Virus record (IMG/VR): IMGVR_UViG_2757320360_000002
Span: 1,328-65,327 of that record
Length of the DNA stretch: 64,000 bases
Source of the DNA: a virus
Lineage: Duplodnaviria > Caudoviricetes
Reading direction: 5' to 3' (one strand)
Shown here in pieces: positions 58,267 through 60,401 of the stretch (the stretch's first letter is position 1; each line of letters opens with the position of its first letter). The position numbers and the translations under genes are program-made. The notes below the pieces were generated by a model. The model was not told where the DNA came from, searched no databases, and worked only from the letters and a program-made list of their open reading frames with translations.

Positions 58267-59736
58267 ATGTTTTTCAAGAATTTGCAGATTTACCGCTTGC
58301 CCGCCGCTTGGGCCATGACGGCCGCCCTGCTCGAGCAGGCGCTGGCGCCGCACCAGTTCACGCCGGCCACCAGCATGGACCTGGTACGCCAGGGCTGGGC
58401 CGCACCTCGCGGCGCCGGCGCGCCGCTGGTGCACGCCGTGAGCGGCCAGTTCCTGCTGCAACTTAAAACCGAGAAGAAGCTGCTGCCATCGACAGTGATC
58501 AACCAGGTGGCCGCCGCCCGCGCACTGGAAATGGAAGAAGCCCAAGGCTTCGCGCCCGGCAAGAAAGCCATGAAGGAACTGAAAGAGCGCGTCACCGACG
58601 AGCTGCTACCGCGCGCGTTCGCCATTCTCAGCACCACGGCCGTGTGGATCGACTCGGTCAACGGCTGGCTGGTGGTGGACGCGGCCAGCCCGGCCAAGGC
58701 CGATGAAGTGATCAAGCTGCTGCTCAAATCCGTCGACAAGCTGCCGCTGGAAAGCCTGCGCGTGCAGCGCTCGCCGGTCGGTGCCATGACGGAATGGCTG
58801 CAAACGGGCGATGATCCGGCTGGCTTCACGGTCGACCAGGACGCGATCATGCGCGCCACAGGCGAAAGCAAGGCCCAGGTGGCATACAAGCGCCACACAC
58901 TGGAAGCGGACGATATCCGTCGCCACATCGCCGCCGGCAAGCAGTGCACCCGCCTGGCCATGACCTGGAGCGACAAGATCAGCTTCGTGCTGGACGAGAG
59001 CCTGGCCATCAAGTCAGTCAAGCCGCTGGAAATTATCAAAGAAAGTACCACGCGCAACGACGACGAGCGCTTCGACAGCGATTTCGCCCTGATGGCGGGC
59101 GAGCTGGCCAAGATGCTGGCCGACTTGGTCGAGGCGCTGGGTGGCGAGGCCGACGTGGAGACGCAGGCGTCGGGCCCGGCTGCTGCCGGCCAGCAGAAGA
59201 CCGAGCGCGCCGTGAACTTGACTGCCGATCTGTACAAGCTGCGCAACCGTTATCGCGATGTGCTCAACGAGCTGTATGAAAGCACCGTGCAGCCGGCCGT
59301 TGCCCGCGTGCGCGAGCAAATGGAGCAAACCGCCGAAGGCGCGATTAAATCGGCGCTGACGCTGGCCAAGGAACTTCCTGGCGGCTCACAATCCGCCGAC
59401 CTGTTCCTGGTAGCCGCCGCTGAGATCATGGAACCGAGCCCACGGGCGGCAGCGGGCGATGCCCCTGTCCGCCAGCAGCGTCCGGCGCTGCAGCTGAATG
59501 GCGAAGCAGCAGCCGTGCCGCCTGGCGACGGCAGCGCGACCGATCCGCTGTACGACCAGGCCGTCGAGGTCGTGCGCACGCACCAGCGCGCGTCGATCTC
59601 GCTAGTGCAGCGCCACCTGCGGATCGGCTACAACCGGGTCGCTCGGCTGCTGGAGACAATGGAAGGTGCCTGCGTGGTCAGCGCGCAAGCGTCGAACGGC
59701 GCACGCGAGGTGCTGGCGGAAAGTGACGTGAAATGA
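58267..59736 (+). CDS. rdgC: RdgC recombination protein fused to FtsK gamma-like domain
   Basis: [24 protein letters not shown]; C-terminal [31 protein letters not shown]. Confidence 0.88.
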
Positions 59737-60401
59737 TCTCACTCTGGCTCCACCGACAGCTTGGGCCTAACCGCAGCGCTGATTTCGCTCATTGCTGCAG
59801 TCATATGAGTATTGGCTCTGCTGATAATTACGTGAAGCTTGAGCAAGCGGAACTCATGCTGCATGATATCTGGTTCAGGATTGAAGGTATCCAAGATTCC
59901 TTGAGTCGCCACACCGACGGCAAAGATGTCAGCGTTGACCCTTGCAATATTCTCAGCGCAGTCGCTTCCCAAGCCAGACAGTTTCAAAATATCTTCGGAG
60001 GAAAGCTTGTGGCAGCTTTTGCTCCAAGCCACAAGCTCTCGGAGAGCACCCTCTGTAATACTGCCGCCGCCAACTGTAATGACAAAATATTCATTGAATC
60101 GTTGAATTTCGTCGGAAAGTTTCCTCAGAAGGGTCCAGTGTTCGGCTGCAGCCAATATAGCAACGATGCGCTCTTTTCTATGGCGCTCCCGCTCGCCTTT
60201 GCCAGCAAGCCAGATAGCAGCCCATATGGAGACGACTGCCCCAATTGCCTGCATCCACCCGGCAGCCTCGCCCGAACCAAAACCTTTACATTCAACTGCG
60301 CGCGCAAAGCCACAAAGCAAAGTTGCCAAGAGGAGCAAAGCAGTGAGCCAACCATACCAATTTTGTCTAGTAATTTTTATCATGGAGCAATATTAGCATG
60401 A
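59733..60401 (+). CDS. Bridge ORF 4 (222 aa), antisense to cargo gene
   Basis: ATG overlaps RdgC stop; TGA overlaps ATG at 60398. Confidence 0.45.
59739..60383 (-). CDS. Antisense cargo gene 4: W-x-QAIG membrane protein
   Basis: Two TM segments, [16 protein letters not shown]; AT-richer; probably leaderless. Confidence 0.78.
   Translation of the reverse strand: MIKITRQNWYGWLTALLLLATLLCGFARAVECKGFGSGEAAGWMQAIGAVVSIWAAIWLAGKGERERHRKERIVAILAAAEHWTLLRKLSDEIQRFNEYFVITVGGGSITEGALRELVAWSKSCHKLSSEDILKLSGLGSDCAENIARVNADIFAVGVATQGILDTFNPEPDIMQHEFRLLKLHVIISRANTHMTAAMSEISAAVRPKLSVEPE
60390..60401 (-). promoter_or_regulatory. Extended -10 promoter candidate TCATGCTAATAT
   Basis: TGn-TAATAT with 6 nt to the ATG at 60383. 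Confidence 0.62.

Follow-up and report, generated by a model that had tools for sequence, protein, structure and literature searches.

Morons of lambdoid phages, described for HK97 and HK022, are independent transcription units located between phage genes. Translational coupling through ATGA overlaps and the suppression of Rho polarity by translation are established features of bacterial gene expression. When open reading frames (ORFs) lie antisense within bacterial genes, the usual response is to write them off as a codon-bias shadow or else to put them forward as concealed protein-coding genes. SieB of lambda and P22 and RexB of lambda are prophage membrane proteins that act in exclusion or abortive infection. 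Here we analyzed a locus within a 64-kb stretch of caudoviral DNA (64,000 nucleotides, referred to below as the window), in which a minus-strand gene, termed the cargo, lies opposite a plus-strand ORF, termed the bridge. The coordinates of this locus and of three further cassettes in the window are listed in Table 1.

Table 1. Features of the nested locus and of the other cassettes in the window.
Feature	Position	Strand	Details
RdgC and FtsK-gamma fusion, upstream operon gene	58267..59736	+	489 aa; Pfam
Bridge (relay) ORF	59733..60401	+	222 codons; codon-aligned antisense to the cargo
Cargo gene	59739..60383	-	214 aa; wholly within plus ORF 59733..60401
Operon-strand side of the junction: GGAG, 10 nt, ATGA	60373..60401	+	sequence
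Predicted extended -10 promoter of the cargo, TGCTAATAT	60390..60398	-	sequence and conservation
Downstream operon gene, "ASCH-like" in the preliminary description	60398..61042	+	214 aa; phrog_874
Sister cassette A, bridge ORF	41466..42104	-	212 codons; covers cargo 41484/41499..42092 (+)
Sister cassette B, bridge ORF	44023..44766	-	247 codons; ATGA at each end; spans cargo 44050..44667 (+)
Fourth cassette, bridge ORF	40062..40355	-	97 codons; TTGA and ATGA junctions

The nesting of the cargo inside the plus ORF and the ATGA at both ends of that ORF, as given in the preliminary description, were confirmed from the sequence. At the upstream joint (ATGA, 59733-59736), the TGA stop of rdgC (59734-59736) overlaps the ATG of the bridge, and at the downstream joint (ATGA, 60398-60401) the TGA of the bridge overlaps the ATG of the next gene. 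The bridge thus starts over the upstream stop and stops over the downstream start, as a coupled operon gene does. Another ATGA overlap follows the downstream gene at 61039, and in each of the two window operons every gene is linked to the next through an NTGA overlap. The 489-aa upstream protein matched RdgC (E=2.5e-109) and FtsK_gamma (E=8.6e-23) in Pfam. The name ASCH for the downstream gene found no support, as this gene had no Pfam match and its sole match was phrog_874, a family of unknown function; we keep "ASCH-like" below only as a label. The cargo occupies a low-GC island (59737-60400) with a GC content of 0.49-0.50 vs 0.63-0.67 in the flanks, so its composition is unlike that of the flanking phage genes, as expected of a moron. 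Across the cassettes, the excess of C over G on the operon strand was only modest. Junctions of the form AGGA/GGAG-N9-10-ATGA, similar to the one listed in Table 1, were found in other open family members.

Sister cassettes A and B lie 15-18 kb away from the present cassette, which is oriented against its own operon, and alignment placed the cargos of all three in the same protein family, in agreement with the preliminary description. The junction motif that had been proposed to be common to them could be written as TCATG[AC]TAAnAT and was present in all three cassettes. Cassette A is joined by GTGA to the stop of a methyltransferase gene and by ATGA to the start of a PAPS-reductase-like gene. 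One and the same junction sequence takes different positions relative to the methyltransferase in different prophages (W_B vs L009). The cargo of the fourth cassette (~40123..40350, +) encodes a small, unrelated protein with a C-terminal transmembrane (TM) segment and has its own TGTATGAT box; its bridge lies in another register than those of the three family cassettes.

The cargo protein has two N-terminal TM helices, with GWMQAIG at the start of TM2, followed by a C-terminal helical bundle, and its AlphaFold2 model (pLDDT 92) was all helical, with helices at 6-33 and 38-81. It therefore shows the hallmarks of its family, namely a length of ~200 aa, two N-terminal TM helices, and W-[VMI]-Q-A-[IV]-G opening TM2. 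A profile search with this family retrieved 1161 clusters, nearly all of ~200 aa, which can be described as unnamed W-x-QAIG two-TM prophage proteins with a weak match to phrog_33632. The cargo of P0001 is 96% identical to it. Several copies per prophage are common, often two to four and diversified, and 44 of 301 genomes from the bacterial family of Duganella contain the cargo family. No significant family was found for the cargo in Pfam, PADLOC, or NCBIfam, including their exclusion and defence models; Pfam searches with 62 family members returned only scattered membrane-protein noise, and tblastn against 50,697 phage records gave no match. Foldseek searches returned only generic helical bundles from the PDB (vinculin-tail-like, E >= 0.09) and, from BFVD, only one uncharacterised viral protein. 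From the ESM Atlas came nothing but clusters without a name and one lead to DUF4760 (0.78), an identity that no profile search supported. Our guess is that the cargo probably acts in phage exclusion or defence; these prophage membrane proteins form a large family of more than 1000 clusters, as yet uncharacterised, and are obvious candidates for such roles.

Cargo and bridge are in codon alignment, with position 2 facing position 2, so that stops in the bridge require TTA, CTA, or TCA in the cargo. None of these codons occurs among the 62 Leu and 43 Ser codons of the three family cargos in the window, which have a GC3 of ~0.5 and whose remaining four frames contain 4-17 stops each. Expected numbers were derived from the codon usage of closed relatives (those with stops in the bridge frame) within the same family; on this null, 7.5 such codons were expected in the cargo at 59739..60383 (P(0) = 2.2e-4). 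Counts of TTA, CTA, and TCA were bimodal across 41 family genes located on contigs of viral, genome, and metagenome origin, with 0 in 17 genes, 1-3 in 5, and 4-13 in 19; the five intermediate genes had their stops at or near the 5' end of the cargo. The joint P(0) of the 17 zero-stop genes was ~1e-60 if independent, a value that is overstated because these genes are not all phylogenetically independent. The result was replicated in the 301 genomes of Duganella's bacterial family, where 11 of 18 new genes had none of these codons vs 4-7.5 expected. Overall, 28 of 59 family members elsewhere had a fully stop-free opposite frame, for which the family null predicts 4-9 stops, whereas most of the remainder had 4-13; in the 17 zero-stop genes with inspected junctions, NTGA was usual at both ends. 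The earlier argument that the recurrence is not due to chance is thus strongly borne out at independent loci.

The depletion is specific to these three codons. In closed members they account for 21% of the Leu codons and 19% of the Ser codons, vs 1% and 1% in open members, and the use of other A-ending codons is similar between the two groups (203 vs 180 per 1000). In the high-GC flanking genes, TTA, CTA, and TCA together reach 9.7 per 1000 codons at open loci and 11.0 at closed loci, which exceeds their frequency in the open cargos despite the low GC of the latter. Avoidance of rare codons by the host is contradicted by their presence in these flanking genes, and a general avoidance of the TA dinucleotide was ruled out, as TAA and TAG abound in the other frames. 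On one prophage contig, 2854692064_000002, two open cassettes and one closed cassette occur together.

Pairwise comparisons showed which of the two frames is conserved as protein. Between W_C and L036, differences at cargo codon positions 1, 2, and 3 were 0.32, 0.26, and 0.62, and identity was 0.52 for the cargo vs 0.27 for the bridge frame. Bridge identity was generally about half of cargo identity, and this ratio was equal in open and closed-bridge pairs; between open members, position-3 differences reached 0.58-0.68. In a close relative, the cargo was 96% and the bridge 93% identical. No match to the bridge product was found in Pfam or PHROG, and its only relative in 5.8 billion proteins was P0152, which is 93% identical and also 222 aa long. 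Purifying selection on the amino-acid sequences of both frames was not what we found, since the cargo is conserved and the bridge is not. Judged by these comparisons, the minus-strand gene is a real, conserved protein gene, and only the openness of the bridge, not its product, is kept. An origin of the cargo by overprinting on an older operon gene was rejected, because members of its low-GC family occur widely and in many different contexts.

Inspection of the junctions of the 17 zero-stop genes showed that the bridge ended in an ATGA on the start of the next gene in 15 and began with an NTGA on the TGA of the upstream gene in 11. Closed members account for ~40% of the family (24/59). Those with assignable flanking genes also lie antisense between operon genes, and their downstream genes are led by a Shine-Dalgarno (SD) sequence; strand calling of flanks from GC3 is confounded by shadow ORFs in GC-rich DNA, giving a clear (-,-) in only 19 of 41 loci and wrong calls for W_B, and we draw no count from it. 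L050 has the identical fused junction before its ASCH-like gene, yet contains 8 stops, so a working operon does not depend on the bridge. In L036, the closest ortholog fetched, the frame is open for ~190 codons and closes 72 nt short of the cargo start, and in L036, L012, and L042 the bridge ends 72-84 nt before that start. Open and closed states are intermixed on the family tree, with ~10 changes on what is a quick, weakly supported tree. The preliminary description had regarded relatives with the cargo present and the plus frame closed as evidence against the nested arrangement. Such relatives do occur, L050 and L036 among them; the sequence comparisons nevertheless indicate that nesting is frequent (28/59 open) and selected, but not obligatory. 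It had also suggested comparing empty and filled states of the rdgC/ASCH-like junction. Filled states were plentiful, with many different inserts across relatives; of 80 loci for which the ASCH-like gene served as anchor, none had an empty junction, the slot always being filled. Co-directional genes that occupy this slot in related phages are also ATGA-chained.

A scan for consensus -35/-10 elements found no promoter for the cargo. The TG of the extended -10 element TGCTAATAT, however, falls inside the CATG at the start codon of the next gene, and 6 nt separate the end of the hexamer from the cargo ATG, so that a leaderless mRNA starting at ~60383 is predicted. The corresponding pattern TGnTAnnnT was present upstream of 27 of 41 family members vs 5% of background windows, and in 8 of the 27 it stood at the identical -15 offset. 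No intrinsic terminator-like site was found on either strand in 58900-60700, so the cargo lacks the own terminator of a typical moron. RNA-seq run X1 (100% identical) yielded one unstranded 1090-nt contig over 59276-60365, which may stem from DNA carry-over. This contig spans the cargo plus 463 nt past the cargo stop, that is, antisense to rdgC. No contig of X1 lies on 60366-60412, other contigs of the run are short, and contig gaps prove nothing. We take the contig as a weak hint of cargo transcription. Wastewater and wetland runs with small shares were left out of any judgement on habitat.

We consider it probable that the cargo is an inverted moron expressed in lysogeny and that the strand opposite it has been selected as a ribosome relay, either for coupling or against polarity. 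The two-TM cargo would ride within the rightward early operon in inverted orientation, and its own predicted promoter and leaderless mRNA would allow it to be made in the lysogen while the surrounding operon is repressed. Ribosomes ending rdgC would restart on the bridge, read across the inverted gene, and stop at the start codon of the next gene. Such a relay would maintain the stop/start coupling chain of the operon genes and would spare ~650 nt of operon RNA from a ribosome-free state that invites Rho-dependent polarity. The price would be paid by the cargo, in which TTA, CTA, and TCA could never be used.

Other explanations were weighed against this relay. If the 222-aa plus product were functional, both strands would be under protein selection. 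The bridge frame is indeed open, begins with ATG, and is coupled as a normal operon gene, and the equivalent ORF in a relative (P0152) was called by a gene caller. We nevertheless hold dual coding to be very improbable, since the product has no Pfam or PHROG match and a 93% identical copy as its sole homolog, its identity is about half that of the cargo and no higher in open pairs than in stop-filled ones, its first codon position (cargo position 3) is the most variable, and closed relatives manage without it. It is also Cys-rich and of odd composition, as expected from a reverse-complement reading. That the bridge is a long antiparallel shadow ORF, left by the bias of a GC-rich host against TTA, CTA, and TCA and overlapping its neighbours by chance, is hardly credible to us, even though the codon-aligned antisense frame is known as the one most often open and the flanking genes, at 61-67% GC, would fit such a by-product. 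A preprint argues that antiparallel shadow ORFs are unlikely to encode essential proteins (10.1101/724807). The cargo, however, has a GC3 of ~0.5 and uses other A-ending codons freely; the GC-rich flanks carry ~10 of the three codons per 1000, whereas open cargos carry none; the distribution is bimodal and not graded; the open state accompanies NTGA at both ends; and one closed and two open copies coexist within one prophage.

Two further explanations were considered. Ribosomes on the operon transcript could serve to block pairing with an abundant cargo mRNA and cleavage of the double-stranded RNA by RNase III, or head-on translation and transcription could shut off the cargo in lytic growth, coupling being secondary. 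Over 645 nt the operon and cargo transcripts would be perfect complements, the cargo is not followed by a terminator, the RNA-library contig runs 463 nt past its stop, and the SD-led downstream genes of closed members show that coupling is replaceable. Such RNA-level reasons leave the exact NTGA overlaps at the start and end of the bridge unexplained, and we regard them as unlikely. A legacy of mobility, in which gene-shaped copies with ATGA at both ends were swapped by gene-boundary recombination or inserted with a 4-bp ATGA duplication and only these copies spread, appears decidedly unlikely. It would agree with the TCAT/TCAC at both ends, the shifted position of the junction sequence relative to the methyltransferase, the varied inserts in the rdgC/ASCH-like slot, and the usual presence of several copies per prophage. 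Mobility covers the ends, but not ~200 stop-free internal codons after synonymous saturation at position 3, and no transposase, recombinase, or terminal repeat longer than 4 bp was seen.

The ribosome relay may extend beyond this locus. The chances appear to us evenly balanced that a general "ribosome bridge" exists in temperate phages of Burkholderiales-type hosts, whereby backward genes in early operons would be codon-constrained and the opposite NTGA-coupled ORF would be translated only for ribosome passage, perhaps silencing the inverted gene lytically. If true, no earlier reading frame would have been documented as held by selection for translation itself and not for a product; this would represent a new type of synonymous-site constraint, and the cassette would act as a module in the shape of a gene, open to shuffling from operon to operon. 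For the bridge studied here, we think it rather likely that the frame is kept open for passage and not for protein, which would be a rare case. The statistical signal is strong and replicated, and points to a third option for antisense ORFs, with the frame open and wired into the stop/start chain while the product drifts. If this is confirmed, selection on the translation of one strand can dictate the synonymous codon choice of the other, and the finding would explain how lysogen-expressed genes sit head-on within tightly coupled phage operons without breaking the operon. Annotation would then follow the rule of calling the low-GC inverted gene and flagging the bridge.

Like lambdoid morons, the cargo has a foreign composition (GC 0.50 vs 0.64), has its own predicted promoter, lies between two operon genes, and likely plays a role in the lysogen. 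Unlike them, it is inverted and without a terminator, its predicted promoter merges with the start codon of the neighbouring gene, and its opposite strand is a coupled ORF. To our knowledge, neither the inversion, nor a neighbour-fused promoter, nor a coupled ORF on the opposite strand is part of the moron concept. The cargo resembles SieB and RexB in that a temperate phage encodes a small protein of the inner membrane in its early region, here under a separate predicted promoter, and the several diversified copies per prophage also count toward this likeness. It differs from them in that searches by sequence, profile, and fold revealed no similarity. As in textbook coupling, the same 4-nt overlaps join every gene of the window operons and the proposed benefit is identical; in contrast, the coupled element here is the reverse complement of another gene and is held open through the synonymous codons of that gene. 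The bridge also shares with shadow ORFs and proposed antisense overlapping genes of bacteria (10.1101/724807; 10.1101/2020.11.18.388249) a fully embedded, codon-aligned position in which stops are set by TTA, CTA, and TCA. Unlike in shadow ORFs, the depletion exceeds the codon bias measured at the same loci, is bimodal, and is tied to junction coupling. This excess, together with the unconserved product, sets the bridge apart both from a by-product and from an overlapping gene of the classical kind.

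The locus lies in a 65.3 kb IMG/VR provirus, of which the window is 64 kb (61% GC). GC content was 0.49-0.50 at 59737-60400, compared with 0.63-0.67 in the flanks. A nested antisense pair had been claimed here, with the minus-strand gene (the cargo) entirely within a plus-strand ORF (the bridge ORF) and ATGA at both ends, and this was confirmed: the ATGA at 59733-59736 is the bridge ATG overlapping the TGA of the rdgC fusion gene, and that at 60398-60401 is the bridge TGA overlapping the ATG of the downstream gene. The two paralogous cassettes of the same build reported for the opposite, leftward operon were also present. 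NTGA stop/start overlaps chain both operons of the window, running through the bridge ORFs.

Features of the cassettes and their surroundings in the window
Feature	Position	Strand	Remarks
Upstream gene	58267-59736		RdgC fused to C-terminal FtsK-gamma, 489 aa
Bridge ORF	59733..60401	+	222 aa, wholly encloses cargo ORF
Cargo ORF	59739..60383	-	214 aa, within low-GC island
Extended -10 box	60398-60390		TGCTAATAT; of cargo 59739..60383
Downstream gene	60398-61042		phrog_874 its only match
Sister cassette	41484..42092	+	Cargo, within ORF 41466..42104 (-)
Sister cassette	44050..44667	+	Cargo, within ORF 44023..44766 (-)
Fourth cassette	40062..40355	-	Bridge ORF, 97 codons, TTGA and ATGA junctions
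CI-like repressor gene	47630-48337		

The FtsK-gamma part of the upstream protein is a KOPS-binding winged-helix domain, an unusual addition to a recombination-associated protein, and tblastn (coverage q1-485) showed that the fusion recurs in many related prophages. The label ASCH given to the downstream gene in the preliminary description was not borne out: no Pfam family matched at E <= 0.1, and phrog_874 is of unknown function. Relatives of this gene are encoded by 266 viral contigs. The cargo of the fourth cassette (75-86 aa, C-terminal TM, own TGTATGAT box) is unrelated to the W-x-QAIG two-TM family of the other cargos, and its bridge register, unlike theirs, is non-aligned, with position 3 opposite position 3. 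Because this unrelated cargo is also bridged, bridging appears to be a property of the operon and not of one cargo family.

We asked which strand is the gene. A profile of five family members retrieved 1161 clusters (E <= 1e-3) from 1.84 billion representatives, nearly all of about 200 aa. The motif W-[VM]-Q-A-I-G was kept despite synonymous third-position changes, whereas the opposite-frame residues varied (TDRLHP, ADRLNP, PNCLHP). Compared with L036, the closest of the relatives fetched, the cargo differed by 0.32, 0.26, and 0.62 at its codon positions 1, 2, and 3, and identity was 0.52 in the cargo frame and 0.27 in the bridge frame. The cargo frame is the conserved one, and the cargo is very likely the real gene. 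A functional second protein from the bridge strand would also account for an open frame, and a 222 aa copy, 93% identical, was found among 5.8 billion proteins; it was the only relative of the bridge product, which matched no Pfam or PHROG family (the nearest copy of the cargo protein is 96% identical). However, the two-to-one ratio of cargo to bridge identity was also seen in pairs with a bridge frame interrupted by many stops, indicating that the bridge product is no better conserved as an ORF than as a non-ORF. Judged from these alignments, selection appears to act on the openness of the bridge only, not on its sequence.

Since cargo and bridge codons are aligned, with second positions opposite one another, bridge-strand stops are possible only at cargo TTA, CTA, or TCA. 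None occurred among the 62 Leu and 43 Ser codons of the three window cargos, in which GC3 was about 0.5, TTG, CTT, TCT, and AGT were freely used, and each of the other four frames held 4-17 stops. Across 41 distinct genes of the family, taken from contigs of viruses, genomes, and metagenomes, counts of the three codons were bimodal: zero in 17, 1-3 in 5, and 4-13 in 19. The single such codon in L035a and L035b is a start-choice artefact within the promoter box, and those in L012, L036, and L042 are confined to the first 24-28 codons. In closed members, in which the bridge frame is interrupted, the three codons made up 21% of Leu and 19% of Ser codons, compared with 1% and 1% in open members, while the remaining A-ending codons were similar (203 versus 180 per 1000). 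With closed members' usage as the null, 7.5 were expected in cargo 59739..60383 (P(0) = 2.2e-4); the joint P(0) of ~1e-60 across the 17 zero-stop genes is overstated because these genes are relatives. A second, independent sample covered 301 species-representative genomes from the bacterial family including Duganella; 44 of them carried the protein family, often as 2-4 copies a few kb apart, and 11 of 18 new genes had none of the three codons, with 4-7.5 expected; the other seven had 1, 3, 3, 5, 7, 8, and 13. The claim that recurrence argues against chance was thus upheld in both samples. An open frame could be a by-product of codon bias, but GC-rich flanking phage genes carry more of the three codons (9.7 per 1000 at open loci, 11.0 at closed loci) than the low-GC open cargos, and host bias was rejected as the cause. 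The openness of the opposite frame is very probably under selection.

Open and closed members were interleaved on a quick maximum-likelihood tree with weak support, requiring ~10 state changes, which implies that the state changed repeatedly. One prophage, IMGVR_UViG_2854692064_000002 (L009 and L050), has three members, positioned as in the window; both members flanking the methyltransferase are open and the rdgC/ASCH-like member is closed, which also speaks against host codon bias. Wherever flanks were recognisable (methyltransferase, PAPS-reductase-like, RdgC, ASCH-like gene), the cargo lay on the opposite strand. In 80 loci located through the ASCH-like gene, no empty slot was found after rdgC; the slot held either GC-rich co-directional genes, all ATGA-chained (L047, L056, L070, L089, L052, L115, L063), or low-GC inverted ORFs, comprising family members (L048, L077, L050) and other small ORFs (L046, L053, L054). 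The expected pairing of cargo and open frame held only in part: in L050 the cargo has 8 bridge-strand stops despite a junction identical to that of the window, indicating that the bridge is advantageous but not indispensable.

Several relatives differ in arrangement. L077:1952-2604, between rdgC and the ASCH-like gene, is a divergent member (AAWVGAIG) truncated to 173 aa, whose bridge consists of two ORFs that do not share a frame (1952..2260, which opens with GTGA, and 2266..2604, which closes with ATGA); its sequence suggests a frameshifted cassette in decay. In L035:2381-3821 (Herbaspirillum sp.), two tandem members are each covered by a separate bridge ORF (2384..3184 and 3186..3821) that meets the following start as TAG-C-ATG, and G001:C33:674837-676782 (Duganella rivi) has two family genes at adjacent positions; arrays of 2-4 copies per prophage are common in this bacterial family. 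In a contig of a related organism (run X9), 59579 is linked to 60404, so that the rdgC end and the whole cassette are either skipped or replaced; wastewater contigs carry AAGGAG-N8-ATG directly before the ASCH-like start. Both are candidate alternative slot fillings. In metagenome relatives a different, SD-led sequence precedes this start (loose end at 60404).

An extended -10 box, TGnTAnnnT, preceded 27 of 41 family genes, compared with 5% of background windows. In TGCTAATAT, the TG is that of CATG, which on the other strand is the ATG of the downstream gene, and 6 nt separate the hexamer from the cargo ATG, a layout typical of leaderless mRNAs. The box has this offset in seven further members (L004, L012, L020, L024, L032, L036, L039), including the closest relatives of the cargo, which share a conserved M-[IT]-K-I N-terminus; members with this exact spacing and no Shine-Dalgarno are predicted to have leaderless mRNAs. 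Read on the operon strand, this stretch is GGAG-N10-ATGA. At its end the bridge met the next start in an ATGA overlap in 15/17 zero-stop genes, and it began as NTGA on the upstream TGA in 11/17, as also in L012 and closed L006; in three further members it began 5-8 nt from the upstream stop. The fused CATG-box junction occurred in 16/22 open members versus 1/19 closed (L006), plus L050; the usual arrangement in the closed class is a spacer, with the downstream gene served by a strong GAGGA Shine-Dalgarno.

An RNA-seq run from an organism identical in sequence to the window gave one 1090-nt contig on 59276-60365, from 18 nt inside the cargo start to 463 nt past its stop, across the rdgC junction. 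A scan of the locus found no terminator after the cargo gene. The contig hints at an unterminated minus-strand transcript starting near 60383, although such contigs show neither strand nor level and may reflect DNA carry-over. The AlphaFold2 model of the cargo (62 family sequences, pLDDT 92) predicts TM1 (6-33), a long TM2 (38-81) that extends into a stalk, and a bundle of helices (83-205), with no informative fold or family match found. An exclusion or defence protein expressed in the lysogen would fit the conserved anchor and divergent soluble domains, the multiple copies per prophage, the constitutive type of promoter, and the location in early regions.

We propose that in the lysogen, with the early operons repressed, the inverted cargo is transcribed from its own promoter. 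Upon induction, operon transcription would cross the cargo gene; ribosomes finishing rdgC would reinitiate at the ATG that overlaps its stop, translate across the 222 codons of the bridge, and terminate on the downstream ATG, handing translation on and keeping the RNA covered. The price would be borne by the cargo as three codons never used. Coupling or anti-polarity is a somewhat favoured reason for the open frame; alternatively, the frame might protect from double-stranded RNA, silence the cargo, or be a legacy of gene-shaped mobility. The sequence signal is strong and the idea is clearly testable by experiment.

Morons, ATGA coupling, polarity, and shadow ORFs are all known, and a literature search found no description of this combination. 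The combination would be an inverted moron with constrained synonymous sites, the reverse complement of which is proposed to act as a relay ORF, coupled but product-free.
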